Positions 11,381 through 51,963 are shown, numbered from the whole stretch's first letter. The stretch: 63,744 bases of DNA, filler included, from Hausera hauseri (GCA_046269625.1; 11 parts of 11 records of this genome joined end to end with filler, not necessarily neighbours in it), one strand, 5' to 3'. A program made the numbers and translations. The notes: generated by a model not told the origin, from the sequence alone.

Positions 11381-11449
11381 ACGCACGTCCAAACAATCGG
11401 TGCTCTGTCGGTTTAGTTCAGTTCAGTTACTGTGTCAATCATTGAAAGA

Positions 11450-27611: not shown

Positions 27612-27706
27612 AAAAAATCAGTGACGAAGAACAGTATGACAATTGTATTCATGGTGGTAAAAATAAAGATGATCAAATTTGTGACACTGCAGATTCTATA
27701 TGCTTT

Positions 27707-30304
27707 TTGTCTCCTGTTGATTCACTTAACGCAGCCGTTGTTTTGGACTCTCAAACGGTGTCCCTTAAATCGGCCATGATACCTCAAACGTTTAATTTGG
27801 TTGACAACGCAACAAATCAAAAAAATATCTTCAAAAATCCATCTCCAATTGTATCTACGAAACCATTTAAGACATTTTCAGAGTGTGAAAGTGAAAAAAC
27901 TGCTAAACTATCAGTACAAGACAAAATTGCAAAACTGGAGTCTCAGAACATTACATCGCCGGGCAGACTTAGTTCTTCATGGAACGTGTCCAAATCATGT
28001 TCTGGCGAATCTGTTCTGAATAAAACAAGTTTATCTGGTGATCGGTGTTCATGGAATTCTGAGAATATTAAACCCAAACCCGTCGGATCGGTGAATTCGA
28101 GTCTGTCAAATTTATATCATTTTTGGGAAACCGAATCCCCAAAAACGATATCCACCTGCAGTCATGAGAATTTTAGTGTTAGTACAAAAGTGGCCCTGTC
28201 TTCTGTTCATACCACCATTAATGAGAAATGTATGTGTAAATATCCAATTAGAAACTACCGAACAACATGAGGATACGATGAATATTAATTTAGCCAATAC
28301 TTGGAATAATACATTTTCATTTAGTAATTCCAACACATCCGATGATGTATCAGGCTTGAATGAGATAATTATGGCTCCTCGGTTTAACTCCGTGAACAAA
28401 CCAACGTATACTTCAATTCCTAACGACATAGACAGCGATAGTTTATATGACGACAGTAATACTACAGAACATCGGAAAAATAATTTCACATTTGCTACAA
28501 ACTACGGTAATATGGCATCGACCTTGATCGTTTCGGACTCTGACATCTGAAATATGCAGGGGTCTTTTTGAGGGTCAGCAGTTTCAAACATCAACGGGCA
28601 TTCAGACAAATCTTGTCTCAAATAATCCTCCGTTCAATTGTACAACAGCTTTTGAAAATAAGTCCACAGAATCATTGACCTTTTCACTAGAATTTGACAG
28701 AACTGCAATGAAAAGTCCTGTAAGCGAATTCACGTCTACTATTCCTGCACCAACTCTTTTCAAAAATCCTTCTCAAGCCGACAGTTCAATTTCCGCCATG
28801 TTTTCTCATCCGAAATCAAAGGGGGATAAGAATCAACCATCTGAACTCAGCTCGGCGTCAAAGCTGTCCAAACGAAGTCAATCAAAAGATTCGACTTCAA
28901 TGGTAAGCAGCAAACGGTCCCAAAGCACCAAGGATTTACGGTTATTCGAAGAAAATCTTTATAATAAAGATCAGAAACCGGTCCAAAGGAAAAGTGTAAC
29001 ATATAGCGATGATTTTGCACACTCTTATTCGAACGACTTAAAATCTTTAGGTTATATTCAGGCTTCAACTCAGTCAAACACTCATACAAAAAATTATACT
29101 ATTGAGAAACATGAAAATTTTTGTATTCATGGTTTAATTGAGCGAGCGAAGAAAATCCACAAATGCCTTTTAAATGGATGCAATGATTGCACATCGTTCA
29201 CCGATGACAATTTGTAGTACGAATGCGCGATTTGCTCGCCCTATAACAGTATTAAACGCGAATTTGCTCATAGATATCAAACTTGTGAAGAATTTCTGGG
29301 GTCAAATGGTACTGACACTGATTATCGCAAAAACGAAATATGCAAAAAGTTCAAATCTCGTCCAAACGAAGTCATTGTCAAACCTCCATTTCAAAACATT
29401 CAGTTTGTCCGCGACTCCTCTTTGAAACAAACAAGATCACTTAACAGTAATCCTATGTACATTTTGCCTATTCCACAACAATTCCCTTCCACTCAAACAG
29501 CAAATTCGTTGTTTAAATATGTGAAACAAAGCAATCCTCAATCTGTCAAAGCTGTTCAGGAGTTAGCGGAATCAGCTCAGTTGATGCAAAAACCTCGAGA
29601 ACGATTGTCAGAGTCTTTATCAATTAAAAGTAATGATTTACATATGGTTACGCCATCATTTGTAATGCGAAACGACGCTACTGATAATCTGGGTGAGGAA
29701 TTGAGGGTGACCGCTCCCGTTGCATCGCATCCCCTTTCTTTTCTTATCTTTTCTAATAATAAACATGTCCACACATTAAGGGTTACGCACAAAAAACAGG
29801 TCATTCTTTATTCTGAATTGTCCTCTTATTTCGGCTCCTTCGATTTTTATTTTATGCACAACGGTCTAACTTTGCAACCTTACGACTCTCTTTCATCCTT
29901 TTCACCCGAGAAATATTCCATCACTCTCACTGTTTATTTTCGCATTTGTGGTGGATCAGACCTTGACTCTTCTCTCCAAAATTTTAACAAAAACCAGGTC
30001 TGGTCGTCGTCCTGTCAACCCCACACCATCAACATCTTCAAACCTTCCCTGTACAGACTTTTTCCTAGATAAAACGAACTCGAACCGAACTTGGTTACAG
30101 TTTCACCTTCAATGGCTCAAAGCCAATCATATTACAGATTCCTTCCTGCGAGCTAACAGTTTGCTGCTATTATTTCCAGCTAACATCAAGCAGCAGATAA
30201 GTAATCTGGCTGACATACTCTCTTCTTCAAGCCCGTATGATATGCTGTATGAATCGGTTCTACATATCACCGACCCTTCCATCGACAGCATAATCCAGAA
30301 GTAT
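27707..30304 (+). mobile_element. Gypsy copy A: long pre-Gag leader (Ser-rich, Cys/His domain), ubiquitin-like domain (29734-29955), start of Gag capsid
   Basis: 28675-30072 is one frame with a single stop. The Gag N-terminus TWLQFHLQWLKANHITDS...PYD.LYESVL...PSIDSIIQKY is homologous to copies B and C. The 5' boundary is uncertain. Confidence 0.75.
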
Positions 30305-30404
30305 NNNNNNNNNNNNNNNNNNNNNNNNNNNNNNNNNNNNNNNNNNNNTTAATTAATTAANNNNNNNNNNNNNNNNNNNNNNNNNNNNNNNNNNNNNNNN
30401 NNNN

Positions 30405-30957
30405 ATTTAGTGCAAAAATCAAAAATAAAAAGTATTTCGAAGCAGTTAACGAAGGAAAACAACTGTCCGATGATCGAATATCGAACTTGAAACATTTTTC
30501 ATCGTCTGTACCACCAGGAGATATATTAAACAATCATCGATTGGTTGATAGTGTTCATTCATGTGAAACAACCGAAGCCGATACGAGTAGCACATTACCA
30601 AGTCATAATTTTACAAGTCCCGAAAGCAATCAATCGTTGCAATCTTATAGACCAAACGGTGTCATGTCTGATCCTCTGTCAAATCAGTCCGATAGATCAT
30701 CATTGGCAAATGGTGATTTCCCAACGTACCCATCTGAATCGTCCCAATTTCCTTGTCAGAAAACCGCTCAAAAGACTAAAGTCGAAACGAGTATAAGTAA
30801 TAAAGCATCGACGTCAAGCTGGGAACTGCCGGATCTTGGCAGTAATTTGGATTTTGACAATGGAAATCACATTCCGGAATTTTCTGATTCAGACGATGAT
30901 TGTAACAATCTTATAAATATTGACAGAATTAAATGTCTCCTTGAAGCTGACACGTAA
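30405..30957 (+). CDS. Ser/Asp-rich low-complexity coding segment, probable exon of an unidentified gene
   Basis: Open frame of over 150 codons with a possible GT donor at its end (GACAC|GTAAATT). Confidence 0.35.
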
Positions 30958-32061
30958 ATTATTAATCAAATATCGGAAATTATTATTCAGAGAATCTAAT
31001 TAGAAAATTTTCTTTTTTACTGATATTCTTGGAAATTCTCACTCCGTTTTTATCTCCCCCCGTGTTCTTCTTTTTTGTTGTTTGCTGTTTCTATTTTTTG
31101 TGAATAATTTCAGCATGGCCTTATTAATCTCATTGTTATGGTCATTAGGTGATTTAGTTTTCCTGACTCGTTTGGCTTTGATTTGCTTTCAGATTGAACT
31201 TATTTCTGACGAAGATAACCTTATTAAAAAGGACAAGGAAGAAAAACATGAGAAATTTGCTACTTGTACAAAATTAATCTATATTGTTCGTGTTGTGCAG
31301 CAGAATTTGTAATTCAACATGTTATCTTTAATAATAATACTACTTATTATATTGAGTACCTTATTTGTTTGAATTTTACGGTTTATTGGACGACGACATT
31401 GTTTCTTTTTTATTGTTCCAGTTGACGATTTCTATCATTGTTTTTGTGTGCGCGTAGCATGAATGTGTATGTGTTAATTTGAAATTTGTTTAAATAATGT
31501 AAAGTTATTTTTTACAAGTGTAAAAATTTTGATTAAATTGATTTTTTTATATCAGCCATTTTCTTTTGTCGATTTTAGAAGCTAATCTTTTGGAATTATT
31601 TTATATACGCGGCGATTTATCAGTTAAATTAACAATAATGACTTCAATTAGTTAATTATTAAAGTTCGATATAAAGTGGGATAAAACAATCCAGGAATAT
31701 TTGGTTGATAAAGAGTTATAGAAAATATTCCAATGGTCAAACACAATATTCAAACGTTTGACCATGTATCACATGACTATTCACCACAAATGAGAAAATT
31801 CAGATAACATCTCGACTCATAAATGCTACGACAAACTACCACCCATCATTACTCATGAATTTCTCGATCTCATCAATGCTCGTATTGGTCTCAAGTTAGA
31901 ATGCCATTCATACGACGTATGAATAACGTAACGATTTTGGTTGAAAAGAGCTGTACGACACATCTTTTCCCTGATTTCGTCGTTTGCGAGGAGTCTGATT
32001 CTCTAACCCGTATAAACTGTTCTATTGAGAATTCTTTGTGAGTGAGTGATAATACTCAGAT

Positions 32062-32205
32062 TGTAGGAGATCAGTGCAGAGAATTTGTTTGTATATTTCA
32101 AAGCCATTCTTTCATTTTCAGCATTGGAACGAAAGCATAGTCACCTGGCGAGGAAGATCTCATCACCGATCCACCAACCAGTGCAACCACATTCAAGGCA
32201 CTACA
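32062..32205 (-). repeat. 144-bp 3' LTR of element 2 with TGTAG...CTACA inverted termini
   Basis: Follows a purine tract; begins TGTAG and ends CTACA on the minus strand (perfect 5-bp inverted termini). Confidence 0.8.
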
Positions 32206-35200
32206 TCAGCTCTCGTGGCAAGATGAAGACTATCAAGACGAAAACAGATGGGGATTATAGTAGGAAAAGAAGAACTTGTACCTATTCGGTTTTGGTCCGT
32301 GTTAGACGTTGGACTTCGTCCATGAACTTCTCCCTGCTGTAAGTGCTAAACGTCACATGGGGTGATCTGTTAGATGTTATTGGTGCTTGTGGAGTTGTTT
32401 GAGGGAGAAATACTGTGGATTTTGTGGTGCTTTCGGAGGATGCTTCATAAAAAGGGGAGAGTGGAGAAGAAAGGCCGAGACTGGAGATGGCAGCGAATCG
32501 TGCGATGAATGTGAAATGAGTAGTGGATTTGCAGGCGATGACGGAGAGGCAGATGGTGAGGGAGCAGTAGATGATGAAGGACGTGAAGAGAGCTGATTGT
32601 GACTCGCGAGTGAATGCTGCGAAGGATTAAACTCATTAAGGAAATTAGATGATGGCTCGAGGGTAGAGAAGTTAGAGTTGGAATTTGAAACAATACTGTT
32701 ATCCTGGTCGTCGTCAACAAAAAAGGCTGGCTTGCGATTAGAAATGTGTACGTTGTGAGGTTTGTCCTTGCGTAAAATAGTAGCAGTGTGCGAAGGAAGA
32801 TTAAGTAGTTTGTACGGTCCCATGTATTGAGGCCGAAAACCAGAAGGTGACAGATCCTTCAGCCATACAAACTTGACTGAGTATAAGTTCTCTGAGATAT
32901 AAAATTTGTCTTTATTTATAAGACGGCAGAAGGCATTTGAGTTGACATCAACAAAGTGGGACTGTGCCGCACGAATAACTTCATCTGACGGACTTTCGTC
33001 GAGATTGGCGAGCTCAAATAGTGCAAGAAATGGTGTTCCAAAGAGAGCCTTAGCTGGAGCACAGCCTGTGGTCGTGGATGGCGTGTTGCGCCAATCGAGT
33101 AGGACAAGAGGAAGAATTGAAGTTCAGTTATGATTATTTGCCAGGATTTTTAAGGAAATCTTCATGGTGCGATGAAATCTCTCGAGAAGACCATTTGCCT
33201 GGGTATGGTACGGCGTCACTTGGGCTATCCACAAGTCCTTCACAATAGACTTGAAAGGATCAGCTTCAAATTGCGGACCCTGGTCCGTTATGATGTGACG
33301 TGGTGAGCCAAAACGGCTGAGCCATATCTTGATAAATGCATCTGCTACTAAGTCAATGTTTGTTGATCGAAGCGGAACGGCTTCCGGCCAGCGAGATGCA
33401 CGATCCATCATAGATAAGATACATTGATAACCATTGTCGGTAAGTATAGGACCCACAAGATCTAAATGCACGGTTTCAAAACGAGAAGTGCAAGGGAAGT
33501 TGTAGACTGGTGGTTTGAAGTGTTTATGAACCCTTGACCCAGATCTGTACATCGGTACGCATAGTTGCCCATACAACGTGGCGTTGCAGTAGACAAAATG
33601 TGGCTTTTGAACGCGGATGATGAAGAGAGTGAAAGTGATTGAAAGCTCTCTTTTGTAGCGATTGAGCAAGAATAATTTTCTTGTTGGACGAGTTGGAGGT
33701 GTCATAGACGATGCCATCGATGATTTCAACAGATTTAAAGGCTTTGAGAATATCAGATAATGGCTGATTACTTCTCAGGACCTCAGAGGAGAAAATTGGC
33801 TGAACTGTAATTGAGTTAACCGACCGCGAAAGAAAATCCGCTACTAGATTTTCGGTGCCTGAAATATATTTCATGGAAAAACTAAATGTCGACAGGTATA
33901 ATATCTATCGTTCTTGTCTGGATGATGGCTGTTTCAAGGTCATTATATGAAGTAAAGGCTTTTGGTCGGTTTGAATGGTAAATCGACGTGAAAGAAGCAA
34001 GTGCTTGAAGTGCTTTACTGCTAAGACTACAGCCAAGAGTTCACGGTCGAATGTGGAGTATCGGCTTTCCGGTTGCGTGAACTTTCGAGAATAGAACTCT
34101 AATGGTTCATCAACGCCATTGTATATTGGGTGTAATATCGCACCAGTTGCTGTGGTAGAGGCATCGGTAGTTAATATTAGTTCGGCGTTTTGTTTTGGAA
34201 AGGCCAAGATTTCCACAGTTTTCAGACCTTCCCGAAGGCTATCAAATTGATTTACCAGATCGGGAGTCCAATGGATCAATTGTCTTTTCTTCCCAGATGA
34301 GAGGTGTGCAAACGGTGCCATTAATTCGGAGCAGTGTGGGACGTATTTGTGTACGAAATGCAAAGTCCCAAGAAAACTCCTCATATCGGTAGTTGTAGTT
34401 AGCAACGCTACATTTTTTAATTGTTGTAAGCGATCAGGCTGGGGCGAATGCCCTTCGGGAGTAATTATGTGGCCTAGGAAGTTTGCGCGTTTTTGAAAGA
34501 AACTGCATTTGTCGAAATTAATTTGAAGGTCACTTAGATGCAATCTGTGGAAAATAATTCTAAGATGCTTATGATGTTGTTTTATGGAGCTGGAAGCGAC
34601 TAATATGTCATCTATGTATGGATGAACAAAATCAAGTCCAGAAAGAACGGTATCAATGTGGCGCTGAAAGGTCTGAGATGCACTACGTAGGCCGAAAGGC
34701 ATGAAGATGTACTCGTAAAGACCAAACGGTGTGATGACAGCAGTTTTTGGAATGTCATCAGGCGCAACAGGGATTTGATGGTAGGCCTTTTGCAGATCAA
34801 TAGTAGAATAGGTATTGGTGTTGTTGAGGCTATGGAGAATATCCTTAATAAGTGGCAGTGGATAGGCATCTGTAACAGTTAGATTGTTTAATTGTCGATA
34901 GCCGCCACATGGCCTATAGGTTCCATCTTTTTTTACCACTACATGAAAAGGAGAGGCCCATGGAGAATTATATTTTCGAACGATGCCAGACTTTTCCAGT
35001 TCATTAAACTCCCGCTCCACAGCTTTACGTCTGCTTGGCGACAAGGGTCTGACCTTCTGTTTGATAAGCCTCTGATGCTCTGTTACAATGTGATGATAAG
35101 TTGAGGACGAGAGCTTGAAGTTGATGTCTCTTTTAACTATTTGAAAGCATGATGTTGTAATATATGTTCTAAGATCGGAGTCTAAAGATAAGAAAGATTG

Positions 35201-35604
35201 AGGCGTATCTTTAGAAAGAACAGCTGCGGTGACTGAAGAGAGGCAACTGGCATCGCTACTGTCGACACCTTATTTGGATTTCTGTTTCAAAATGGATATA
35301 GGATTTTTGTTCATAACTGAAGGTGTGCCAACTCTATCGGAAGTTTTTTTAATAGATGAAGAAACGTTTAACATGTTTCCAGATGAGTGCAATGAATTGC
35401 TTCCTAGATTATCTGTGAGACACATGTTTGAAGTTGAAATCGAATTTCTTCTGAGAAGACAGCTGTATTTGCATTCTACCAATAAATCATGAGCGACAAG
35501 GAAATCTTAGCCGATTATGGGAGATTTAATGTTGGCCACGTGGAACTTCCAGACAAACTTATCTGGCAAGTTGGCAAATGTAAAAGTCAATTCCGTGGTT
35601 CCTG
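32062..35604 (-). mobile_element. Ty3/Gypsy (CsRN1-like) element 2: end of protease, RT-RNaseH (379-aa ORF), integrase, 3' LTR
   Basis: SPWASP, DLQKAYHQIP, MPFGL, PYIDDIL, LTTDAS, DRELLA, HLDLVGP, ITDQGPQF, NGLLERFHR, GPY; same family as element 1. Confidence 0.96.
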
Positions 35605-35704
35605 NNNNNNNNNNNNNNNNNNNNNNNNNNNNNNNNNNNNNNNNNNNNTTAATTAATTAANNNNNNNNNNNNNNNNNNNNNNNNNNNNNNNNNNNNNNNN
35701 NNNN

Positions 35705-38700
35705 TTGAGTAAGTGTTATTGTTCAGTGATTTTACAGAAAATACCAGATTTTTATTGCCAACATTGAGCTGTGATTGGCTGTTGACATTGTCTTTTGGAA
35801 GCTTACTGTGTAAAACGTGATAGTTATTGGAATTAGAACGAGGTGCTGACTGTTTTAAAATAGGTGGCTTACTTAATATTAGGCGGTGTTGCCGTTGTGA
35901 TGTTGTCTATACCTGTGTTATGGTTTACAGATGTATTTGCTTTTAGTCAACGTCGGTTACAGTCAACTAGTAAATTATAGTGCGAAAGGAAGTCGGTGCC
36001 AAGTCTTGCTGTTTGGACGTTAGCGAGTGTAAACGTCCAATGAAATAACGAGGAAAAATGTTGTAGAGTGAAAGATAGTTTGCAGTATCCGGCTATACGG
36101 AGAGCTTGACCAGATGCAGTGTATAAAGGTTTTATTTTAGATGAAGAATGCTGAACCAGAAAAGAAAGTGGGAGAAGTGAGATCGCTGCGCTAGTATAGA
36201 TTAGAAAATCTATGGATTGAATGTTAGGATTAGAAATAGCAGCTTTTAATTTGAAGACTGTAAATGAAGTGTGTCGGTGAAAGGAATTGGATAGGTTGCC
36301 TTCCGAGAATACTGGCGGCAAAATCAGTTCTTTGGATTGGTGAGTTAGAATGGTTACTGTTAGAGATGTTGGGACGTCTATCGATGGAGTAGTTTTGTTA
36401 GTTTTGGAGGTACAGCCGGAAATACAATTCCGAGCATTAGATCCGAACTTTGCATAATAGATGCATATTTTATTACCTGAGTGTAGATTCGGCGAATAAT
36501 TTTAACAACCTAAGCAACATTTATTTGCGTTGTTATTAAATTTGTTGTGGTAGTAACATACGAATGACCTCGTGGGTGACGGTGTTCGATTTCTGGAAGG
36601 AAAACGTGTTCGATGTGACGAAGGAACATTCCGATGATGTAACGAAAGGTCATTCAGTTTATCATTGATGGCGTTGATTTTTTGTTGTAGAGCCGCATTT
36701 TCCTGCTCGTAATTGGTTCAGTTGTTGTTCGATAGATGTTTGTCGTTGACTATCATTGATGGTAATAGCAGCTGATATGATGGGTTGTGATTGGATTTGT
36801 AAGATTTCGTGTGCTTTATCGGCCAATTCCTCTAGCTTACCTAAGGCTGTAGAATCTTCAACGACGGTAAGCAAAGCCCTGATCTGAATTGGTAAAGCGT
36901 TAAGGAAATATCGTCGAAGTAGATCAGGGTTATGTTTCTTGGTGACACCTACAGTACGTAAGTGAGCCAATGACGTGCGTAGGAAATCGCTAGTTTTTGT
37001 GTTCACATTGCGTTTTCATTAACAAAACGCTGCATTATTGAATCAATTGATAGTTCTGTCTGTTTTAACACAGCATGGAACATTGTGTATAAGGGTCGGG
37101 GTGTTGAAAGTTGTCCAGTATGTTATGGATTGAGGTCTTTATAGAGTTTGGTAGAAGATAAAGTAGATTATGGGTTTTGGATCACGAGTCTGTGATACCG
37201 TTGGACTGTATCCAGAGTTGATGGAAGTGGAGCCAGGTTTTACTAGATTTCTCATTGTCTATAAAGTATTCAGAGCAATGTGAGGAAGTATTGATAGTAT
37301 TTTTGTGAGAAGAATTTGCATCGGTTGAAGTAGGTGGATGGTTTGCTTTGGGGTAGTACAGAATGGGTTTGGTTTTAGTGGTCGCTTTATCGATGGCGTC
37401 ACCAGTTAGTAAAGCAATCATACCGCCGCGGACCCTAGGATTGATATGTATACATAGATGGTGATGTGAGGCCATGATTTGTTTGAGGTCGGTTAAAATG
37501 AAACCGCTGAGTCAGGTAAAAATCTATATAGGCGGTGGTATTATAAACGAGAGTGTATAATTGCGATGTTTTCACACGTTGTGTGATATATACGGTTTGT
37601 ATTAAGGTATTATTGACATAAAAGGAGAATAAAAACAGCGATGATAGACGGTAAAATGGGTAGAGTGGTATGTCAACGTGGTCGTACGAAGTTAAGAGGG
37701 TTAACTTGCGATAATGTGCCTCGATTCCATCTTGTCTCATTACAGATCCATTAATTTCCATAGATGGTTCGGTATTGGGTTTGAACGGTTTGGTAGGACG
37801 AGGTACGTGTGGTGAGTATTTAACGATGCCACAAGGTGGCTGAGCCATTATATTAAATTCTATGTAGTCATCGTCGAGTTCATGAATTCCTGAGTGTCAA
37901 ATACTTCAGAACGTGAAAGTGTAGTTTACGAATTTTGCCCAATGAAGCTAATTTAGATTTCAATGTAGAATGAGTAATTTTATCGACAGTAGCAAAATAT
38001 CTCAAGAAGCAATGTCGTGGACAAAGGTTAAAGTGAAGCAACGGTTGAATAGAATAAACGAAATTTATCATCTGAGGACTAAAGAAAAGAAGTGTTTTAC
38101 TGAAATGATTTAGGATTCCAAGGGTGGCAGTATTCCTGTCAGAATAATAGCAATATGTATCACCAAAGGACGCCTTCACTAGATAAAAGTTGTAGGTCAA
38201 AAATTCGATACTACCAAAAACGGGCGGAATCATAAAAGGCAAAGAGAAAAGGTAATGCTGCCAACATGGACCGGTAACCATTTCAATAAAATTGAAGTAG
38301 CGAATAGAAATTACACTACCCGAACTTTGGCCGGCCTATATTCTCTTCACCTCGGCGAAAATATTAATGGTATTCTTACAGAAAACGGCCAATGTCGTTA
38401 AATTATGATTCGAAATTGACATAGATAGGAATATTATCCAATAAAACACTGCGCTGTAAGTCTAGTGCGTCATGTAATTCCTTGTGGAAAAAACGCAGAA
38501 AAGTTTGAATGGTCTTAAATCGCCAATTCGGAAATTCTTGTTTGATATTTAGCAGAGCCACATGGGCTTTTATAATCGAAACAGTTCGATTATTCACGAC
38601 TCCAACAAAATCGCGTTTATATTAGTCATATTTGGATTTACAATCAACAAGAGAAAATATGGTAATTTTCGGTTGATTATTTTCGCCAATATTTTTACCG

Positions 38701-38977
38701 ATGATGAGGATGTAAAATGTTGCCCTTCCAATTGATCGTCATTCAGAAGGGGTTCTATATTTATGGTCATATTGAACAATGAAACGTGATCGGTTATCGG
38801 ATAGAGTAAAGCATTCGGTAATCCAAACGGACTACTCCTGTCAACACCGAAATACTGTTTGATCTCACTAAATTGCTGGTTTATCGACAAAGCAAACGCA
38901 CATGACGTTTGCACATAATACGTCTGATTCTTTGCTAATTTCACATCTACGGAAACATAGAACACATATACCACGTA
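35705..38977 (-). mobile_element. Gypsy copy B: leader, ubiquitin-like domain (about 37422-37640), Gag with two CHCC-type knuckles, aspartic protease; decayed
   Basis: PRVRGG, LRRYFLNALP, CYYHNKF...C..GC and CIYYAKFG...C..GC, FLIYTSAAISLLP (degenerate DTGA), LGTDFL; closely related to copy C. Confidence 0.9.
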
Positions 38978-39738
38978 GCCAATATCTGCACCACAGAATA
39001 TCATTCCAACAACCGATAAATTAAGTAACATTGCTGTTGATGCCTTTAAATGATCCCAAGGAGCTGTATTATCACCCGTACAAACAGCTGCATATTTCTG
39101 AATGCCAGCAAAAAATGCTATGGTTAATACAAACGGACGTTTGACATATCCTGATCGCAACAACTGACCATCCCATGTAGCCCGATGAACTTGAAAGCCA
39201 TAAATGTTGTGAATTTCTCCATGTTCCATATTGTTATAATGAATTGCATCCTTTTCCATTGTAACTTCTGGACCATTGAATATTGATGGCTCACCCATGT
39301 CATTCCATGTGAATGTATTGTTAGGTCTGCTGCCTTTGTACGGAAGAAAAGTTTAGACCACTAATCTCGAACAACCGGATTAATAAAATCAGTCCACATG
39401 CTAGAACCAGGCCAACACCAACCCTTATAAAAAGTAAGACCGCCTGATTTTTTAATGTAAAGATCATTGTTCAGACCATCATATATAGACCAGCCAGGAA
39501 CTCGTTTGATATGTGGATCAACGATTGTTACAAGTTTTCTTGACTTTATATCAAGCTTGTCGATCATTTCATTTGGATTTTCAAATCGTGTTTTGTCCCA
39601 ACTAAAATATTTCTTTTCATCGGCATGTTCAATATCCAGCCAAATAACATCGTATGGAATGCCATGATCATGATCAAACGATTAACATTTTCAATATCTT
39701 TCTGATCATTATAATTCCACCGACACTGATGGTAGCCA
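38978..39738 (-). pseudogene. GANAB: Neutral alpha-glucosidase AB (glucosidase II alpha, GH31) catalytic-region fragment, intronless and disrupted
   Basis: [83 protein letters not shown]; contains frameshifts. Confidence 0.93.
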
Positions 39739-40334: not shown

Positions 40335-40900
40335 TTATAATTATGGGGTCGGATACATAGATCGAATCCTTCTCCAAGATTGTGCTTTGATAGATTTGTC
40401 TGTGCCAAAAATTAGTACATAGACAATGGCAATTGCGCTGCGGATGGTACAAATGTGGCCTTTTCGTAATAAGAATCCATATTCGTAAGACGCTGATTAC
40501 TAGTTAACGATGATGAAAAATTTTGAAAGTTTGGAAAGGTGGCTAAAAGTAACGTTCCGGTTATTGATGACGGAACGGAGGCATGGGCACTTTCGACTGC
40601 AGCATGGTTCCACTTATTAATTCCATAGACATAGTTACCGGATATTATCAGTACGGCAGATAATGGCAATTGAGGATGGACGTTGCCTGCAATCCAAACT
40701 ATAGGTGAACTGCTAACAAACTTGAGTATCAACAACAAATCTGATTGGACTGGAGCAAACATCAGAGGGCTAACATGAAGTGCTGAATTTCGTGGAGGAT
40801 GTGGTTCTATAAGCAGTTGACCTGGAGTTTGTCCAAAACTTCTTAATGGATCTTCAAGAGCTTGTTTCAATATGGGATCATTTATTTCGCTCCATTTGAC
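40335..40900 (-). pseudogene. NBEA: Neurobeachin/LRBA fragment (end of the BEACH domain and linker to WD40)
   Basis: DPILKQALED..RSFGQTPGQLLIEPHPPRNSALHVSPLMF...LKF.SSSPI....N.HP.L...AV......INKW...LPLSM. Confidence 0.85.
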
Positions 40901-41430
40901 TGTTTGGAGATGTTGACTACATTTAATACAAACGCATCCACCACAAGCTCGACAATGATGAATGGGATTAAATTCGGGTAAAACTCTGTATTGCATATAA
41001 AACATTCATGGGCAATATCATCCACTTCCCAATACTTTGGTCTGTTACATGTTGTCAACGATTTTTGAAAATATCCGAATGTGTACCAAAATGTTGATGA
41101 TATTCTGTTTTTTACGGTGACAATTGGCGGGTCGTTACCAAGGTTTGTTGTTTGGATTTTATTAGAAGATTCTGAACACAGCTTCTGATTATCCTGATCC
41201 TGGATACAGTAGCTACAAAATACTTGCTTACAACTGCGACAATGGTGCTTATTCATAGACTTCATAAATATTTTTTTACAAGAACTACATAAACTAACTG
41301 AACTAGTCCGTTCCCAGCCGTCCGGATTGACTACGTCCGATAAATATTCACCTGACCGAACAAGTGAATGGTTGACAGGTTCTGAATACTCTTTGACAGA
41401 GTCGATAATCATCTGACTCATTGGATAAAC
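40901..41430 (-). pseudogene. ZFYVE1: ZFYVE1/DFCP1-like tandem FYVE-domain fragment
   Basis: P..W......C..C...F....KHHCRSC...FC..C followed by RPKYW..D....C..C...F....HHCRACG...C..CS; frameshift in the second FYVE. Confidence 0.75.
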
Positions 41431-41436
41431 GTTGTT

Positions 41437-42416
41437 TTAAGAATTTCTGACTAGGCCATTTGTGCTTTCCAATCGACAATTAACACTGACGTTTGATGAA
41501 GAATTGAGTTTGTGTCGTTCTAGCAAATTGACAACTTGCTCACGAGCTGGTATAATAATCGATTGATTATGTCGAAGGTCTTGTTCGTATCTTTTATACT
41601 GGGTTTGAAGAACTCGTATTTCTTTCTGAATGTTTTGATTCTTCAAATTTAAAGAATGAAATTGTTCTTTCATTTCTGATTCAAACTGAGAACAGTTGTG
41701 TTTCAACTGTATAATTTCCGTATTTTTTGACATGCTTGTAACACTTGTCCTTGATACTCCGATCTTAGTTTTTCAAATTCTCTTTCTAAACTGTGAAACT
41801 TTTCTTTCCAATATGCCATGTTATTTTGATCTCGGCTACTTAATTCTCGTATTTCCTCGGTCTTCAACTGAAGTTCCAGCTTCAATTCTTCTAATTTCGT
41901 TTTTGATCTCGTCGAACCAATTTCAATTCCGTTTCCAAATCTCTATTAACTTCAATTTGGTTTTTATTTTTCTGCTTCAAGAATTTTCGGATTTAAGAGT
42001 TTTCGACATAGTTTCTAAACGACTAATTTCGTATGTATTATCACGCGCCATTCGTTGGAAGCATTGATCCAGTTTGCAAACAATGCGATCTAGATAAGCA
42101 TCTCTTGTAGCCGGAGCAATAGATCGAGCATTAATTATTTTTGTTTGCAGATACTCAACTAAGTTACTAACATTATCACGAGAAAATGTTTCTGGTTGTT
42201 GTCGATGTTGGTTATTAAAAATAGGTGTTTGACAAAATTTTGTTTTGTAGATCTCAGCCGGACTTGTGTTGTTTTCTTTTGATGACTTTGTGTTAGAAAC
42301 TGAAAAACTCCTAGCTTTGCCACAGGCAATAACGTTATGCACTTAAAACAAACACTGATGTTCTCTTTAAGTTTTTGCCAGTCCTCCGAATTACCGACAC
42401 ATTTGGAATCAAACAT
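41437..42416 (-). pseudogene. Unidentified coiled-coil protein fragment, frameshifted
   Basis: Overlapping same-strand E/K/Q-rich heptad-like ORFs. Confidence 0.45.
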
Positions 42417-42444
42417 CGGTGTTTTATTTAAATTAGATTCACAG

Positions 42445-42880: not shown

Positions 42881-42883
42881 AAA

Positions 42884-43316
42884 ATGTACCTTCTCCCTCA
42901 CTCCGGGGGGCGGGGTAATCGATAAATCCATTCTGCACATGTGCCAATCGATAATGCACACGGAGCACTATCGATCGGTAGTGTGCTAAGCAACGGTGCC
43001 CCTAGGTACCGTTGCTAAAGGCACTTTTGCACTTTTCACAAATAGATGATGCAGTATTGATCGAATCGATCGGGGCAAAGTGCTAATCGATAGAGCACAT
43101 CTAGATGCATCCATTGGTGCAAGTGCAAGTGTGTAGCACATGTGCAAGTGTGCAAAAATTAATAATATTGGATTTCCGATATTTCTTATATTGATGATTA
43201 GCACTTGGAACCGGTTGCACTCGGTAGCACACACGACATGCTATGTGAATGTGCAATTAGAATTTAAAAATATTGATTGGATTTTGATAATACGTCAACT
43301 GAGGGAGAAAGTACAT
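42884..43316. mobile_element. MITE-like element with 17-bp terminal inverted repeats
   Basis: ATGTACCTTCTCCCTCA (42884-42900) versus TGAGGGAGAAAGTACAT (43300-43316), 16/17 complementary. Confidence 0.55.
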
Positions 43317-43705
43317 AGGCCTATCCGCTATAAATTTTAAATCAATAATATCAATATGACACATATAAAGGAAGGTGCAACACTTGATGTAGTATCGTTC
43401 AGTGCAAAACTCCAGTGTGGTATGCACTTGGATAGAGTTGCCAGGGCACTTTTCACATTTTTGCAGTTGTGCAACGCAGGATTGATGGAATTGATCGGGG
43501 TCAAGTGTAGGTGGATAGAGCACATTGAGGTGCACCTTGGTATGTAGTGTGCAGTGCAAAAACATGTGTACAAGTGTGCAAAAATCAATAATATCGAATT
43601 TCCGATATTTCCAATATCGATGGTCAGTACTCGGCACCGGGTGCATTCGAGCACAAACACGGTGTAGTATATGAACGAGAAATTAGAATTTAAATTTATT
43701 AATTA
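43010..43705 (+). repeat. Diverged direct repeat (about 43010-43285 and 43437-43705); a related piece at about 57405-57500
   Basis: Shared blocks GGCACTTTT, GATAGAGCACAT, CAAGTGTGCAAAAAT.AATAATAT.G.ATTTCCGATATTTC, AATTAGAATTTAAA. Confidence 0.8.
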
Positions 43706-44249
43706 GTTATCGATCAATATCGATCCAAAGTGCAAATTGGCCAAATTTTCCAAAGGACTTTTAGGTCGTAGGAAGCAAAATTCGATTCAACATTGAGTGG
43801 GGACAGATAGGAAATCGACAATGAAAAATTCGAATCTCAAGGCGAAAACTCTAAATTCGAATTTTTGTCGAGTTCGAAAATCGAAGTTCGAATTATTAGA
43901 AAAATCTAACAACGGGAATCAATTCGTCGTATTCGAAAACCCCTCGTACATAAAAATTATTCCATGAAAATGTACTATATGGGCATAAAATCAATATGGT
44001 GAAATATGCAAAATGTGCCTTCGAAGAGTAATGAAGCGGAAGTCTATAAATCTAATATCGGGGCTGGATAGGAAAGCATATATGTCGAATCGGAATATGG
44101 AATCAGGTANNNNNNNNNNNNNNNNNNNNNNNNNNNNNNNNNNNNNNNNNNNNTTAATTAATTAANNNNNNNNNNNNNNNNNNNNNNNNNNNNNNNNNNN
44201 NNNNNNNNNTTGACACGTAAAACCTTTATTAACGAACAAATGTTGATTA

Positions 44250-44490
44250 AAATATTACAAATGCACCAGTAATAATACTATACACAAGTAAAACATTGCT
44301 CTGTCTTCTTCTAAACGCCTCTTTAATGTTTATCATTAGTATCGATCGAACAACAAGTTGTACATAGTCTTCCTTTGGCAGAAAGTATTCATTCACCAGT
44401 TCATTAAGAAATTTGACACAGTCTATTTTGCCACTGCATATTTCATTTGTGAGCCGTTTAATTTCAGCTTCTAAATCTATTCTGTAATTC
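44250..44490 (-). CDS. Probable terminal exon of an unidentified host gene
   Basis: Short GTATGT...ACTTAG intron-like segment (about 44491-44534) followed by an open frame NYRIDLEAEIKRLTNEIC...LLVYSIITGAFVIF*. Confidence 0.35.
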
Positions 44491-44959
44491 TAAGTATACA
44501 GCTAATTTCGAGGAATAAAATTTAAAAAACATACCATTTTATTTGTTGAAACAACGCCATGCTATTAGCACACCTTTATTTATATCTAACAACCAAAATT
44601 TAAACAAAAATTTTTGGCGCAAACCGACCAATCAGATTTCACCAAGTGGGGTGGGAATAGTGAAACTACAAGCAGATCAGCTTTGTTCACAAGCAAAATT
44701 TAAACAAATCATTACACCAAAATTAAAAGAAAAAAAAGTTTGGCGCAAAATTCAAATTTTTCCTTACCGCCCGAAACCATCCCGTACGCCTGCTTGTGTG
44801 TATCCACTTTCTGACTGTGTGTCTCCTCTCTCCCCCATATAAAACGTCTATGTATGTACCATTTTTCTACCCCATGGCTCATCTCCGAACCACTTCTTTC
44901 CTTTCTTCCCTGGGGGTGGTCTGATCCGGTGTTCTCCTTTCTACCTACTGATATCGTCG

Positions 44960-47900
44960 ATATCCCAGTTCTGGAAAAGAAATCAGCATATGTGTTATCT
45001 TTTTCACTTATGTGTTCTATCTAGAATGAGAATTCTGATAGAAATGAAATGTGCTGCTCTTGATGAGGAGATGGGTTTTTTATACTCATTATGTGAATGA
45101 GTGGTTTGTGATCCGTGCGGATTGTGAACACATTTCCTTCGAGGAAATGTCGGAAGTGTTTGACACTGAGGATTATGGATAGTAATTCTCGGTCAAAAGT
45201 TGAATTGCGTTGCTCAGCCGAATTGAATTTGTGGGAAGAGAATTCAATGGGAGCATTTTTGCTATCGACTGATTGGGCAAGAATGGCGCCTGAAGCGATT
45301 GTGGAATCATCTGTTGTTAAGATAAATGGTGCATCTAGTTTAGGATAGTGTAGTGTAGGTAGGTGCAGAAGCGCAATTTTTGCATTGGCAAATGCCTGTT
45401 TAGCCTCATCTGTCCAATGTACCTGTGATTTCTTGTGTTCTAGGCTTAGAGCAGACAGAAGTGACAGGATTTCCGAGCAGTGCGGAATGTAACGATGGAA
45501 GAAATTGATCGTGCCAAGGAAGCTGCGAAGTCCAGTCACTGTGGATGGCTTCGGTATTTTTTTGATGGATTCTAGTCGCTTAGGAAGTGGACTATGACCA
45601 TGTGGTGTTAACCGAAGTCCGAGAAATAAGGCTTCAGTTTTATAGAATGAAAATTTGTTTATGTTCAACTGAAGGTTGTTTTCATTCAACCTATAAAACA
45701 CATGTTCGAGATATGCTTTATGAGTCGTTTCATCGGGTAATGCAATCAATATGTCATCTATATATGGACTGCGTAAGGTATGTCGATGAGAACTTGGTTT
45801 ATGTGGCGTTGGAATGTTTGACTTGCATTCCGTAAGACGAAAGGCATGCGTAGGTACTCGAACAAACCAAAAGGCGTTATTACGGTCATTTTTGGAATGT
45901 CTTTGGTAGCCACTGGGATCTGGTGGTATGCCCTTTCCAGGTCGATTGTGCTGAATATTGCAGCACCATGTAGGCTATGCAATATGTCTGTTACCAACGG
46001 TGTTGGGTATGAATCGTGGATGGTGACGTTATTCAACATTCTATAGTCACCACAAGGCAGGTATGATCCATCCTTTTTGGAACCATGTGCAATGGTGATG
46101 CCCACGGTGATGTGGAGCGGCGTATGATGCCTGTTTCTTTGAGGTGTCGGAATTCGGCTTCCACAATTGCTGTCTTAACAGGGTCAAGCTCCCTCCGGGG
46201 TTGCCGAATCGGTCGGTCACATGATGTGACGACAAAGTGTGATGTTTTCACCTCTTTCTGTGTTGGTTGTGCTGAGCGTTTCAACAGGTTAGGGTATTGC
46301 GCTTGCAGAAATTATGCGATGTCAATGGGATTTGCGATTTTAATGCCCGTGACAGCGTTTATAGTTAATGTGAATGCGAGTGGAGGTAGTGGATTGCTTC
46401 CGCTGGTAATTTGTTAATTTTGGCAATCAACTGTAAGATTGTAGTGATCTAAGAAGTCAGAACCAAGGATTGGTTGAATGACATCGGCCAATTTAAATGA
46501 CCAAGCGTATTGTCGGACTTGTAGGTAAAATTGTTGATACAGTGTACCTGTAGTTGCTATGCACGTGTTATTGGCAGCTTTGAATGATGCATGCGAGACC
46601 AGCGTAGGTGTAGCGTAAGCGCTAGGTATCAGCAATAAAGCTGCACCAGTGTCGATTAAAAAATCGAGTTGTTTCGAGATGTCGGAGTGTAGTAACTCCG
46701 TATCGAGGGTGAAAATAGCATCGACAATGAGTTCTCTATTTGTATACGGCAGTTGTGGTGATTGGGTTTCCAGTCGACGTGCCGTTGGTTGTCTGGGTCC
46801 ATTTAGTTTTTTGATGGCTTGTGAAATTTGCAGCAGGGTTGACAGATTTTTGCATCTGGACCGAAATTATTGTGATAAATGCAAGTGTCTTGCATTTTTA
46901 TATTTGCAGATGGCCTGTCGAATTGACAGCCATGGTAACATTTGTAGACGGATTCGCCAAATCGTGTGTGGAAATTGCAAATTTTGGAAAATTTGCCTTT
47001 CTTTCTCTTGGGGGATTGGCGCCGAAATGACGGTTTGTCCCTGGCTGGTAGATTCTTGTGCGTTACAAGTGGTTGCAGTGCGGCAATAATGGTGTCCAGC
47101 TGATTTTGCTGGGTCGCCGTGAGGGAGTGGATGTTTTCCGTTGGAGCAGATTCCACGGTGCCTTTAGTGCACTTATGTATTTTGTTGGCTTTTGATGCCA
47201 TATCGTCCAAAGCGGTATCGGGCGGTAATAGCACAATTGCAGCTTAGATTTGGTTGGGTAGGCTACTCAGAAAGTATCGCCGTAGTATATTCTGGTTGCT
47301 GTGGAGGTCCAGCTCAGCAATGCCCAAGTCTGAGCGTAACTTTTTAAGCAAGGCAGATGGTTTCATATTCCCTGCCTGTCGTTTGGTGAGGACCAGGTTG
47401 AACTGGTCTTGTTGGGATGGCAGATACGCTTTGCATATGGCTTCTTTGATTTTGCCAAACGGTTTTTCATATGACAGTAACGTGTCCAGATCCGTTATTG
47501 CTGCGAGCGTTGTTGGCTGCAGGTATTGAATTAGTGTTAAGGCCTTGTTTAGTTGGCCGGTGATGCTGCATTGAGTAACCCATGTTTCAAACACATGGAA
47601 CCACTTCAATGGAGTTCCGTCCGAACCTATGAAGAAGGTTGGACAGGCTAGTTTGAAAGGTTTGGCCGGTGTTTATGATGCAGTTTCGGCCTTTTTGTCC
47701 GGCGTGTGGTCGTCAATGCCTCCTTTTAGTTTCGGAGTCGCCAGTATAGTGGTATTTTCTACGAAAATTGTATTGACTGCGCAATTATTCGTGCGTAATA
47801 GTTTCCCATTATGAGAAAATGTATGCTCGGGATATTGTTGGTTTAAAACTTTTAGCATTTCCGACACAGCTAGAGTGGATGGAAAGCGATGAGCTTTTGT

Positions 47901-49400
47901 ATGACGCCAATTTTGTACAATGAGTTGTACTTCGTTTGGCGTACAATCGGTCGATGTTGTTTCACCACAGTAAATTTTGTTGGCGATGTCAATCGACTGA
48001 CGATTGGATGAATGGTTAAGTAGCGAATTTTCGCTTGTTGTGTGTGCTATTTTGGCACGGTTCGTATAATCGGGTTTGTATTCCGATTTAACGGTGTTGA
48101 CGCATGTGTTAATGCTAGAATATTTTGGCACTTGTTCAATGTCACGCGTTGTAATTTTCTGGTTGCAGTTGATTTTGGTGATACAACTGTCAGTGGGTAT
48201 TACGTGATCATGTTTGGTGATGCACGAATGTGTGACCGGATTAGTTTCTACGGCACTTGTGTGAATGGCTATCAACGGCTGTGTGAAGTGTTTGAGCTGA
48301 ATTTATTTTAACGGTTGCGTTTGTGTTATAAGGCTTGAATGCGGTAACCGCTGCCATCATTTTAGTGCTTATTGCTTTATGAGAGTCCCTGATCCTATTT
48401 AGCAACATAGTAACCAAAAAAGAGTAAGTAAAAACGAATGTAAAAAATCGGTAGAATACAACAGCATAAGAGTCATAATGTTTATTAACATTACAATGGT
48501 CGTCTGCCGATGAGTGAGACTCTTCAGTGGAGGATAGAGACGGTGCCGTCCTGAGAAGTCGACGAGGGGGAATTGGTTGGTCGTCCGTGCTGGAGCTGTA
48601 CGCCCTGACCCGCCGTGAGCTGGAGATTCTCTGGTCCGGAATCAACTGGCTCTTAGAGGGAATCAGTAATTCGAACATTCGGTCTGCATCCGCCATCAAG
48701 CTTATAAAGACTGGTAAGAAGACAGAGTAATCGAACAGCCGTCGGTGATCTCCATCGGCGTAGAACCGTCAAAGATATCCGTTTGGGCGGCAGTACGCGT
48801 CGTTCTCGGGCAGCCTATTGAGGTGCCGCACGAATCTGCTCCGCTGCAGCAGCTCTCGCACCGTCTGGTAGTCAGAGTAGGAGAGGTGCGAAGCTCGACC
48901 GTCACGCACGTGGCGTCGTTTCGTGGGAGCGTCGATAACCTCCCATCTCGATCTCGGGTCTCTTCGCTCAGCGTGGTGTGCATTGTCACGCATCAGCGGT
49001 TCCTTGTATGGTCTCTCGCGTGATGGCTGAATGTCGACTCAAATTCTGACTGTGCGGGGTAATTTCGGGATTTGGTACCTTTGAGTTGTGGTTTTAGATC
49101 TCCAGCGACAGGACCATTTCGTTGGGGATTGTCGATGGCCTTATCCAATTCCGTAGAACTTGTTAAGTCGTCCACATGTGCGGGTTTCGCCACTTCCGAA
49201 CCTGTGTGCACTGAGGCTATATCGGTAGCTTCGTCTAAATCGACGAGAATGTGGGATTGTCTGGTTTTTGTGACATGACTCGGTGCGATCTCCTTTCGGA
49301 TTATCGGTTGGTCCGGTTTCGTTGTCTGCGAATTGATTCTTTAATTCCGGGTGGCCGTAGTTTGGCCTTTCGTTTTCGTGGCGTCTGTCATCTTGAACAT
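44960..49400 (-). mobile_element. Gypsy copy D: leader (novel domain plus TM), ubiquitin-like domain (47718-47930), Gag with two CHCC knuckles, -1 frameshift, PR-RT-RNaseH; integrase missing
   Basis: 48275 to 46803 is one frame with two nonsense codons. FLIDTGA, SPWASPLHMVPK, DLERAYHQIP, YIDDIL, DRELL, TDHKPL. Confidence 0.93.
46803..46812 (-). promoter_or_regulatory. gag-pol -1 ribosomal frameshift site A_AAA_AAC immediately before the gag stop
   Basis: Minus strand TCA AAA AAC TAA; the -1 frame stays open through LNGPRQ... to the protease FLIDTGA. Confidence 0.8.
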
Positions 49401-49798
49401 GATTTAAATACTTATGTCTTCTCTTGAACTGTGGATTCAAACAAATGGATTTCAATCTACAGATTTCGATGGTTAATTTTTTATTATTATTACAAGTGCT
49501 GATCACTTCAGCACTCGTAGTCCCAGTTTTTATTATTATATATTTTTTGTTTCGTAGGCGGATTCTTATTTGTTTAGGATGAATCCGTGATTTATTTTGA
49601 TTTTATTTTTGACCAGGTCTGTGTTGAATTTAAATTTTGGATGTGTATTTTGGTATGTTTAAAATTTCACGGGGAATAAAATTTTTAAATTCGTGGTTTT
49701 TGTATTTTAATTTTATTTGATCGATTCCGTGATATTAATTTTTGAGGTTTTAAATTTTAGTATGTTTTCGTAATTTAATTTTTTTGTAAGGTGGAATC

Positions 49799-51963
49799 TT
49801 ACACTAAGCAACATTTATTTGCGTTGTTATTAAATTTGTTGTGGTAATAACATACAAATGACCCTGTTGGTGACGGTGTTCGATTTCTGGAAGCAGAACG
49901 TGTTCGTTGAGGTGCGGAAGTATTCCGTCGATGTAAGGAAAGGTCATTCAGCTTATCATTGATGGTGTTGATTGTGTGTTGTAGTGCCGCATTTTCGGCG
50001 CGTAATTGGTGCAATTGGTGCTCGATATATGTATGTCGTTGATTGTCATCGGTATTAATTGCGGCTGATATGATGGGTTGTGATTGGATTTGTAAGACTT
50101 CGTGTGCTTTATCGGCCAATTCAGCTAGTTTATCTAAAGCTGTAGAATCTTCAAAAACTGTAAGCAAAGCCCTGATTTTAATTGGTAAAGCGTTAAGGAA
50201 ATATCGTCGAAGTAGATCCGGATTATGTTCCTTAGTGACGCCTAGAGTACGTAAGTGAGTCAACGAGGTGCGTAGGAAATTACTAGGTTTTTGTGTCCCC
50301 ATTGCGTTTTTGTTAAAGAAGCGTTGTATTATCGAGTCAATTGGTGGTTCTGACAGTTTTAACACAGCATCGAACAATTGGGTATAAGTGTCAGAGTGGT
50401 GAAAGATGTCCAGTAAGTTATGGATTGAGACTTTTATGGAGTTTGGTAAAATGTAGAATAGATTATGAGCTTTGGTTAACGAGTCTGTAATGCCGTTGAA
50501 TTGAAGCCAGAGTTGATGAAAGTGGAGCCAATTTTTGCTAGAATTTTCATTGTCTGTAAAATATTCAGAGCAATGTGAGGGTGTAATTGTAGGTTTTTTA
50601 TGAGAGGAGTAAGTGTCGGTTGAAGTAAGTGGATGGTTTGATTTTGGGTAGTAAAGAACGGATTTCGTTTTTGTGGTTAGCTTATCTGTGATGTCACTGG
50701 TTGGTGAAGAAATCATACCGCCGCGGATTCTAGGATGGATATGAATACATAGGTAGTAATGTGAAGACATGATGTGTGTGAGGTCAGTTAAAATGAAGCC
50801 ATTGTGAGTCAAGTAGAAATCGCTGAAGGCGGAGATATTATGAATGAGAGCGTATAGTTGTGATGTCTCGATACGTTGTGTGACGTGTACTATCTGTATT
50901 AGATTATTATTAATATAAAAGTAGAGGGGAAAGGATGGTGATATATGGTAAACCGGATAGTGTGGTATATCAATGTAGTCATTCGAAGTTAAGAGGGTTG
51001 CAGTTTTTTTGAAGAATATGTCCGATCTGTGGTCGCCCTATGGTTAATGGATCTATTGCGTTTATAACCGATGTATAATGAAGAAAATCGACAATAACCA
51101 GAAGGGAACTGATTCTGTCCATAGTCAGAAATTCTAGTCAGAAACTCGCTGTGATCAGAAGAATAAATCGGGTCGAATTTGCGAAAACGGGCCTTAATTC
51201 CCCTTTGTCTCATTACAGATTTATCGAATTTTGCAGATGGTTCGGTGTTGAGTTTTGTCGGTTTGTCGAGACAAGATACGGGTGATGTGCGATTAACAAT
51301 GCCACAAAATGACTGGGCTATTTCATTAATTTCTATGTAGTCATCATCGAGCTCACGACTTCCTAAGAGTGTAAAGTACTTCAAAACGTAAAAGCGTAGT
51401 TTTCCAAATTTCCTCAATGAAGTCAGTTTAAATTTCGAAGTAGGCTGATTAACTTTATCAACAGTAGTAGAAATAGAATATACGAAATTTATGATCTGAG
51501 GAATAAAGAAAAGAAGAGGTGTTTTGCTGGTTTGATCTAGAATTCCGAAGTCGGCAGAAGTCATGCCAGAATAATAAAAAGATGTTACCAAAAAACGCTT
51601 TCGTTAGATATTAGTTGCATTTCAAAAATCTAGGGTGATAGAAAACGGACGAAATCATAAAAAATAAAAAGAAAATGAGATAAATAACACTATCCCATAA
51701 TTCTTGCGCTTCGGGCATGTCCTTACGGACAAAACTAAGAGTTTGAATGATCTTAAATCGCCGTTTCGAAAAATTTTGTATGGTACTCATCAGGACCTGA
51801 TAGAGTCTGATTTTCATAACGTTGTCAAGTTGAATACTCAAAATTGTGGTTAAATTAATAACCTCAGATTTATTCATATCTGAAGGGAGTAACCTTAAAA
51901 TGGCGGATATATAGGTTTTAAGAAGGCCTGGTTTATTGAGGTTCGTAAAATTTACCATCGTAT
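49799..51963 (-). mobile_element. Gypsy copy C: leader with hydrophobic segment, ubiquitin-like domain (50717-50930), Gag truncated after the first CHCC knuckle
   Basis: Frame open from about 51000 to 49799: ...DFYLTHNG...IHPRIRGG|MISS...NWLHFHQLWLQFNGITDS...LRRYFLNALP...CYYHNKF. Confidence 0.92.

Follow-up and report, generated by a model that had tools for sequence, protein, structure and literature searches.

Gag maturation in long terminal repeat (LTR) retrotransposons is usually credited to the element protease and a fixed start codon. In bovine viral diarrhoea virus (BVDV), ubiquitin inserts cut by host UCHs yield the authentic N-terminus of NS3 (PMC8310069), and the divergent ubiquitin-like domain (UBL) Fubi is processed by USP16 and USP36 (PMC10611586). 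Among mobile elements, Ginger and other DNA transposons encode OTU or Ulp1 proteases (PMC2836005). Literature matches for ubiquitin and Gag concern HIV, as far as their accessible text goes, and the available parts of PMC2642776 and PMC11011659 contain nothing on a UBL ahead of Gag. Here we describe retrotransposons of Hausera hauseri (GCA_046269625.1) in which a UBL ending in Gly-Gly (GG) precedes Gag; four copies, A to D, lie in the stretch of DNA analysed, which is 63,744 nucleotides long and is called the window below. These elements are CsRn1-like Ty3/Gypsy retrotransposons, and the UBL-GG-Gag layout is a real, clade-wide architecture under selection. We consider it about 70% probable, judging from sequence features, that a host ubiquitin-type deubiquitinase (DUB) cuts after GG and so frees Gag, with one fixed N-terminus, from a variable leader.

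Ubiquitin-like domains ahead of Gag

The window is composed of 11 separate contigs, each of 4-11 kb, joined by N44-TTAATTAATTAA-N44 spacers; adjacency across spacers is therefore meaningless, and copies A, B and C/D are not neighbours. The original prediction had located four UBL domains here, and all four were recovered at those places with translations that agree with its text. Their parts are as follows, where P numbers denote relatives introduced below and CHCC stands for a CX2HX9CX3C zinc-knuckle-type motif.

28528..29727 (+): frame upstream of the copy A UBL, 400 codons with one stop (29215)
29728..29955 (+): copy A UBL, ending FRICGG then S; 45% identical to the P0007 UBL
29956..30304 (+): copy A spacer and start of capsid, with a frameshift shortly after GG, cut off by the contig end; 55% identical to P0007 Gag
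35950..37421 (-): copy B gag and decayed protease region, broken; two CHCC knuckles
37422..37641 (-): copy B UBL, with a 2-nt deletion near 37509, ending PRVRGG then M
37642..38250 (-): leader region of B, common with C (68%, blastn)
45024..46866 (-): copy D pol (aspartic protease, reverse transcriptase (RT), RNase H), broken
46806..46812 (-): A AAA AAC slippery heptamer at the D gag stop; pol lies in the -1 frame
46806..47717 (-): copy D Gag, with a DUF7041 capsid, two CX2HX9CX3C knuckles and two in-frame stops
47718..47933 (-): copy D UBL, ending PKLKGG then I; structure prediction and fold searches were made on its 67%-identical relative P0006
47934..48360 (-): leader of D, about 140 codons, low complexity, with a frameshift near 48260-48300; repeated with its family in the sequencing run X1
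49802..50716 (-): copy C disordered spacer, two-lobed helical capsid and coiled coil (predicted), breaking off within the first knuckle, with no pol after it
50717..50938 (-): copy C UBL, ending PRIRGG then M; lysine-free, with a predicted beta-grasp fold

None of the four copies is intact (0/4). Copy B has several breaks beyond the deletion in its UBL, and the UBL and Gag of copy C share a single 412-codon open frame, which is uninterrupted from the leader as far as the first knuckle. A UBL profile built independently, without the window rows and the three closest relatives, was compared with 2015 six-frame window segments; the four highest-ranked were copy C at E 2.7e-10, copy A at 8e-7, copy D at 1.4e-4 and, at 0.021, the second half of copy B, and the next segment had an E-value of 0.58.

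The beta-grasp fold that had been proposed for these domains was predicted by AlphaFold2 for C and for P0006, a naturally open protein related to D, and the matches in fold searches include ubiquitin, SUMO and ISG15; copies A and B are supported by the profile ranking. The P0006 model has strands at residues 6-12 and 17-23, a helix at 28-38, and strands at 42-46, 49-51 and 66-73, with a mean predicted local distance difference test (pLDDT) score of 75. Foldseek found 53 matches to this model at E<=0.001, with template modelling (TM) scores of about 0.6. Among the best 50 of these 53, 45 are titled ubiquitin, SUMO/SMT, ISG15, ubiquilin or UBL and one BAT3; the four remaining rows are probably SUMO-tagged chains. 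A wider structure aligner returned beta-grasp folds at Z up to 7.5, a value insufficient alone to decide, and a search of a viral fold library brought up ubiquitins of giant viruses and baculoviruses along with BVDV polyproteins. The model of C, made from 33 whole proteins, has the same predicted topology at residues 36-102 (pLDDT 68-88 by block); residues 108-151 form a disordered spacer, after which come a helical capsid, modelled with confidence, and a coiled coil. A fold search with it gave UBLs (target TM up to 0.73) and the dArc1 capsid, none at E<=0.001.

Direct sequence comparison of the window domains is far less telling. Pfam returned nothing for them but ThiS for D (E 0.016), and single window domains gave no significant match in Pfam or PDB, where the best single-domain E-value is 0.48 and the low polyubiquitin E-values are summed repeats. 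Descent from ubiquitin is indicated by the relatives, 13/35 of which match PF00240 at E<=0.1, three of them above the curated cut-off. An Atlas feature comparison gave 0.90 to the ubiquitin cluster, at rank 13.

The relatives come from a four-row profile of UBL plus capsid, which gave 2303 hits at E<=0.001 among 1.84 billion representatives; the best 150 were examined. A capsid Trp could be placed in 141 of them (9 were dropped), 91 with fewer than 68 aa upstream of it were dropped, and 50 were kept. The tail rule was passed by 37, and removal by eye of two false tail matches left 35 clusters with a UBL, a tail of the (R/K)-(L/I)-x-G-G type, a spacer of 22-61 aa, and Gag. UBL and tail thus occur in 35 of these 50 sufficiently long matches. 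The UBL had been described as lying directly before the capsid; it does lie upstream and in frame, although the spacer separates GG from the capsid. One relative, P0006, is naturally open and 72% identical to D overall (leader 56%, UBL 67%, capsid 82%), and consists of leader-UBL-KLKGG, then T, then Gag; its Met129 corresponds to the Met pair at 48360 in the leader of D. Protein searches with a word index found almost nothing (1, 1 and 2 matches), and no relatives of the UBL loci were confirmed in the viral and metagenome contigs searched.

A capsid-only tree of 148 rows, made by a quick method and omitting copies A and B and five short rows, groups 35 UBL rows (33 from the database plus window C and D) in one clade of 43 rows, with a Shimodaira-Hasegawa-like approximate likelihood ratio (SH-aLRT) of 97. 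The other eight rows of this clade have N-termini too short to judge, one of which starts MRLRGG, and 0/15 long UBL-less rows fall within it. Clusters in the clade are less than 50% identical to one another and retain the UBL in every row long enough to judge. A further UBL-bearing pair, P0096 and P0123, stands apart from the main clade among ordinary single-knuckle CsRn1-like Gags. This tree points to two separate gains of the UBL, and a single gain is not rejected (approximately unbiased test, p-AU 0.318, 30 rows). In P0061 the domain is a near-canonical ubiquitin (Pfam 81.5 bits, E about 1e-28 across ubiquitin 1-76), whereas in its sister P0043 the UBL is diverged and 22% identical to that of P0061. 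The simplest reading of this pair is that the P0061 ubiquitin was recently re-captured; an assembly chimera is a possible alternative.

The domain is also repeated together with its element. In X1, one of two public sequencing runs containing window DNA, summed contig depth is ~44,000-89,000 across D gag-pol, which is not a copy number. Two bins spanning the D UBL have depths of 38,000 and 13,000, and depth upstream of the UBL is ~250; the depth over the D UBL shows this joint repetition.

Selection on the UBL, the di-Gly tail and its proposed cleavage

Median pairwise identity among the UBLs is 18% (600 pairs). With residues numbered as in P0061, the hydrophobic core is maintained; Leu or Ile occupies position 73 in 36/37 UBLs and Arg or Lys occupies position 72 in 30/37, both positions having entered in part into the choice of rows. 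As had been expected of intact copies, GG is present in the open relative P0006 and in 35 clusters, an invariance that is partly circular because the profile contained GG and rows were filtered on it; the clade test lessens this circularity and does not remove it.

The residues after GG played no part in the choice of rows. The first is S, M, T, G, A or V in 29/35 relatives, against 37% in the spacer background, and the second is D, E or N in 22/35, against 23%; the pair is mostly Ser-Asp or Met-Asp. Pro never follows GG directly (0/35). To judge from these positions, the sequence after GG resembles a stable protein N-terminus: S, M, T, G, A and V are stabilising residues under the N-end rule and typical contexts for N-terminal acetylation, and a Pro following GG blocks DUBs. 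A myristoylation signal at this position was considered and rejected, with Gly there in just 3/35.

Selection acts on the domain itself. Between B and C, dN/dS in the UBL is 0.29 (Fisher p 1.4e-4), which bears out the purifying selection that had been looked for; values elsewhere are 0.32 in the spacer, 0.23 in the capsid and 0.33 in the C-terminus. The leader has a value of 0.87 over 63 codons, not significant, and shows no detectable purifying selection. In the D family, 40 of the 49 differences in the UBL in X1 are listed. Among these 40, none affects the K-L-K-G-G codons, the three in residues 61-67 are silent third-position changes, and replacements cluster in the loop at 52-61; 19 are silent, against 23% expected overall (p 0.0008).

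It had also been proposed that Gag does not start independently downstream of GG, and this is upheld in part. In 20/35 relatives, including the D family, no Met occurs between GG and the capsid, so that an AUG start for Gag after GG is impossible there; in P0006 the first Met after GG lies 118 residues on, inside the capsid. A Met is present in the other 15/35.

Translation probably begins ahead of the UBL and continues through both leader and UBL; a USP- or UCH-type host enzyme would then recognise the UBL fold with its R/K-L-x-G-G tail. Cutting after GG would give Gag a constant, stable N-terminus. The benefit might be insulation, in that the 5' region may change or take up host-gene scraps with Gag unaltered; the UBL would derive from host ubiquitin mRNA and could be refreshed by re-capture, as in P0061. 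The features of a DUB-fusion precursor are present, namely an in-frame fusion, the R/K-L-x-G-G tail and the lack of Pro after GG. Leu at 73 together with Arg or Lys at 72 favours a ubiquitin DUB over a SUMO ULP. In the portion of PMC10611586 available, USP36 is described as holding ubiquitin via Leu71/Leu73 and Arg72/Arg74, with a channel restricted to di-Gly.

Several observations weigh against this explanation as a whole, in addition to the circularity of the tail. Ile44 is absent in 37/37 divergent UBLs, which have Thr, Ser or Cys instead, and position 74 is variable; since USP36 contacts all three hydrophobic patches of ubiquitin (PMC10611586, in part), recognition of such divergent UBLs is not assured. 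Where a Met lies between GG and the capsid, in 6 of the 15 relatives right after GG (as also in B and C), an independent start is possible. The binomial p values for the residues after GG are inflated because the rows are related. Of the 40 listed differences among 49 in the D UBL, 21 are non-synonymous, and against a transition-only expectation of 35% the silent excess has a p value of 0.07. The upstream parts of the database proteins are predicted gene calls and may be spliced artefacts. No LTR pair was found in the window, where each element lacks one or both ends. No convincing primer site was found either: an 11-mer for the tRNA-Trp primer site has 8 matches at two mismatches against 6.5 expected, none of them at a 5' position.

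An unlikely alternative is that the freed leader-UBL-GG is the product that matters, being conjugated or blocking E1, E2 or a DUB, with Gag release as a by-product. The tail does resemble an activation-type tail, P0061 is near-canonical, and Burro and Ginger elements have ubiquitin-pathway domains (PMC6431247; PMC2836005). A working modifier is hard to reconcile with the loss of Ile44 and the variable position 74, with Arg42 mostly replaced by Tyr or Phe and with a poorly conserved surface; 4/33 full-length UBLs, including that of C, are lysine-free, leaders share nothing between families, and the bias in residues after GG would be left unexplained. Conjugation or decoy activity had been raised as a side idea in the original prediction, and it fares poorly: the activation-like tail speaks for it, and the missing Ile44 and the four lysine-free UBLs speak against it.

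It is also improbable that the UBL stays attached, either to aid folding, solubility or assembly or as a tag for degradation that limits Gag. Its conserved hydrophobic core, its predicted independent folding and the predicted flexible spacer before the capsid would suit such a role. However, an uncut domain needs neither L-x-G-G nor an N-terminus-like sequence after it, the UBL of C offers no lysine for chain building, and most CsRn1-like Gags among the best 150 of the 2303 matches do without such a domain.

We regard it as very improbable that cleavage at GG is the work of the aspartic protease of the element or of a DUB that it encodes, although D has such a protease and OTU and Ulp1 domains are described from other transposons (PMC2836005, in part). 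No OTU, Ulp1 or USP domain was found in the 88 window open reading frames (ORFs) scanned, in a window without a full pol-integrase of a UBL family. An R/K-L-x-G-G tail on a whole ubiquitin fold suits DUBs, not retropepsins. Finally, the notion that the UBL is a passenger, either a captured ubiquitin relic or a gene-calling artefact ahead of a self-starting Gag, is largely refuted: Met right after GG in B and C and a genome that appears full of host-gene scraps beside elements would fit it, against a UBL under constraint (dN/dS 0.29), kept across a clade of clusters <50% identical, lacking any Met before the capsid in 20/35 relatives and repeated with the D family in X1.

Element class, leaders and host-gene fragments

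The order of genes in copy D (gag, protease, RT, RNase H) is that of Ty3/Gypsy, and its gag and pol are joined by a -1 frameshift with A AAA AAC at the gag stop, as in the CsRn1 clade. Gag has a retroelement capsid fold, seen as DUF7041, as a two-lobed helical domain with pLDDT above 90 in the AlphaFold2 model, and in a weak match to the dArc1 capsid (E 0.02). Two CX2HX9CX3C knuckles are found in D and in 27/35 relatives, one in 3/35 and none in 5/35; this knuckle is the CsRn1 signature (PMC2582038, in part). The CsRn1-like placement rests on the capsid tree with DUF7041 proteins and one butterfly protein. Searches of the window for tRNA genes and Rfam families were blank. In the main UBL clade (P0006-P0061, P0111) the knuckles form a tandem pair, and most Gags end at or near Lys-Asn, as a conserved slippery site predicts.

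Two more Gypsy pol regions (RT-RNase H-integrase), at 21741-25294 (-) and 32377-35604 (-), are cut before gag. They are 64% alike and 72-75% alike to the RT of D, and their RT-RNase H is closest to Ty3 in PDB; the ORFs after integrase in both have no Pfam match. Downstream of a Gypsy integrase, at 20499-21200 (-), is a leucine-rich repeat fragment beside a short piece that, read by eye, we take to be PIWI-like.

Leaders had been called unalignable between families. Matches do occur within families alone, but the 'leader' of A is probably host-gene-like sequence and may not belong to the element: the upstream frame has a base composition like that of a SETD1-type exon, and similarity to P0007 starts at the UBL. 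Upstream frames are more open than shuffled sequence, with 0/5000 shuffles as open for A, 11/5000 for D and 59/5000 for B. In 5/35 relatives, host Pfam domains are found upstream in the predicted protein, whose gene call may be spliced (CNOT1 and Rrp44 pieces, histone H2A, 5'-nucleotidase, SCC3 HEAT, RING). A membrane anchor in the leader was rejected, as hydrophobic peaks are inconsistently placed and absent in many. The leader of C is ~176 nt longer than that of B at 50999-51176 (-), which shifts the frame of C.

Host-gene fragments are found near several copies. The region 25857-29727 (+) holds a SETD1-type RRM exon, a PDZ fragment and long low-complexity frames in frame with the A UBL; the only PDB matches of this RRM are SETD1A and SETD1B. 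Other host-gene pieces in the window belong to lipase, GH31, FYVE and BEACH proteins; together these genes indicate an animal host. Directly upstream of B, at 38594-39681 (-), lies a piece of GH31 (glucosidase II alpha-like) that contains stops and no introns. A 77-nt stretch common to B and C (38479-38555, 51720-51793), just inward of the GH31 fragment, may mark an element boundary. At 40415-41772 (-), an intron-free coiled-coil/FYVE piece lies in one frame with BEACH (neurobeachin-like) sequence and looks like shuffled host mRNA scraps.

We put forward a broader scenario tentatively, at rather less than even odds. Captured ubiquitin might have become a permanent, fast-diverging tag, gained at least two times and refreshed from host mRNA, with host DUBs delivering an invariant Gag despite a changing 5' region that contains in-frame host-gene scraps. 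The elements would thus release chimeric host-fragment-UBL proteins and could act as vectors for shuffled host domains.

Other features of the window lie further from these elements. Two ~80% identical Polinton/Maverick-like protein-primed DNA polymerase B regions are present at 8765-11381 and 52064-55024 (PF03175, E 4e-15 at 53324-54562), and direct repeats of 250 nt occur as pairs at 43051-43719 and 61599-62359, with identities of 74% and 87%. Between the truncated end of C and the leader of D, the interval 48830-49400 (-) is GC-richer, Arg/Ser-rich and coding-like, with a repeat depth below that of either element.

Relation to described systems

The original prediction held that this layout was undescribed, and we found no report of a di-Gly UBL before a retrotransposon Gag in the literature searched, which left out subscription journals, supplements, Repbase Reports, Dfam and GyDB; the caveat is a SUMO-like motif in the Burro polyprotein. 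If host DUBs do release Gag, the first Gag cut would be outsourced to them, making transposons depend in a new way on ubiquitin enzymes of the host; the trick of the pestiviruses would here have been fixed over long evolutionary time. Such release may also explain how elements whose 5' ends absorb host-gene scraps keep a working capsid. The ~35 natural UBLs, with very low mutual identity and only fold and tail kept, offer a panel for DUB substrate requirements.

Several known systems share parts of this layout; the papers cited were available in part. CsRn1, PwRn1 and AgCR likewise have the CX2HX9CX3C knuckle, the DUF7041 capsid and a -1 frameshift in the gag-pol overlap (PMC2582038). The present elements differ from them in the N-terminal leader and UBL and, in the main clade, in having two knuckles; the word ubiquitin does not appear in the accessible text of PMC2582038. 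The giant planarian Gypsy element Burro/GYPSM1 also has a ubiquitin-fold motif in its polyprotein (Ubi2/SUMO-like, PF11976), located downstream of Gag between MATH and BCL-2, in an element with CCHC knuckles and with no cleavage site described in the text available (PMC6431247). Here, in contrast, the UBL is upstream of a CHCC-type Gag and has a ubiquitin-type di-Gly tail at its end.

LTR-mediated retroposition of host mRNA provides a route by which ubiquitin mRNA and host-gene scraps could be captured, often in frame; its products are transient retrocopies, unlike the fixed processing module seen here (PMC5131818). In Ub-eL40, Ub-eS31 and Fubi-S30, a ubiquitin-fold unit is likewise removed by DUBs (PMC10611586). 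Those are encoded by the host and begin with the UBL, whereas here a variable leader precedes the UBL in a mobile element. The pestivirus inserts (BVDV Osloss, CP1 and CP Rit) likewise consist of a ubiquitin unit within a polyprotein, preceded by unrelated sequence and serving as a signal for host proteases by which the downstream protein acquires its authentic N-terminus; they are recent, near-identical to host ubiquitin and sporadic (PMC8310069, PMC13517609). Unlike them, the UBL described here is fixed in a clade, has diverged to ~18% identity, has lost Ile44 and precedes a retrotransposon capsid, with its processing predicted.

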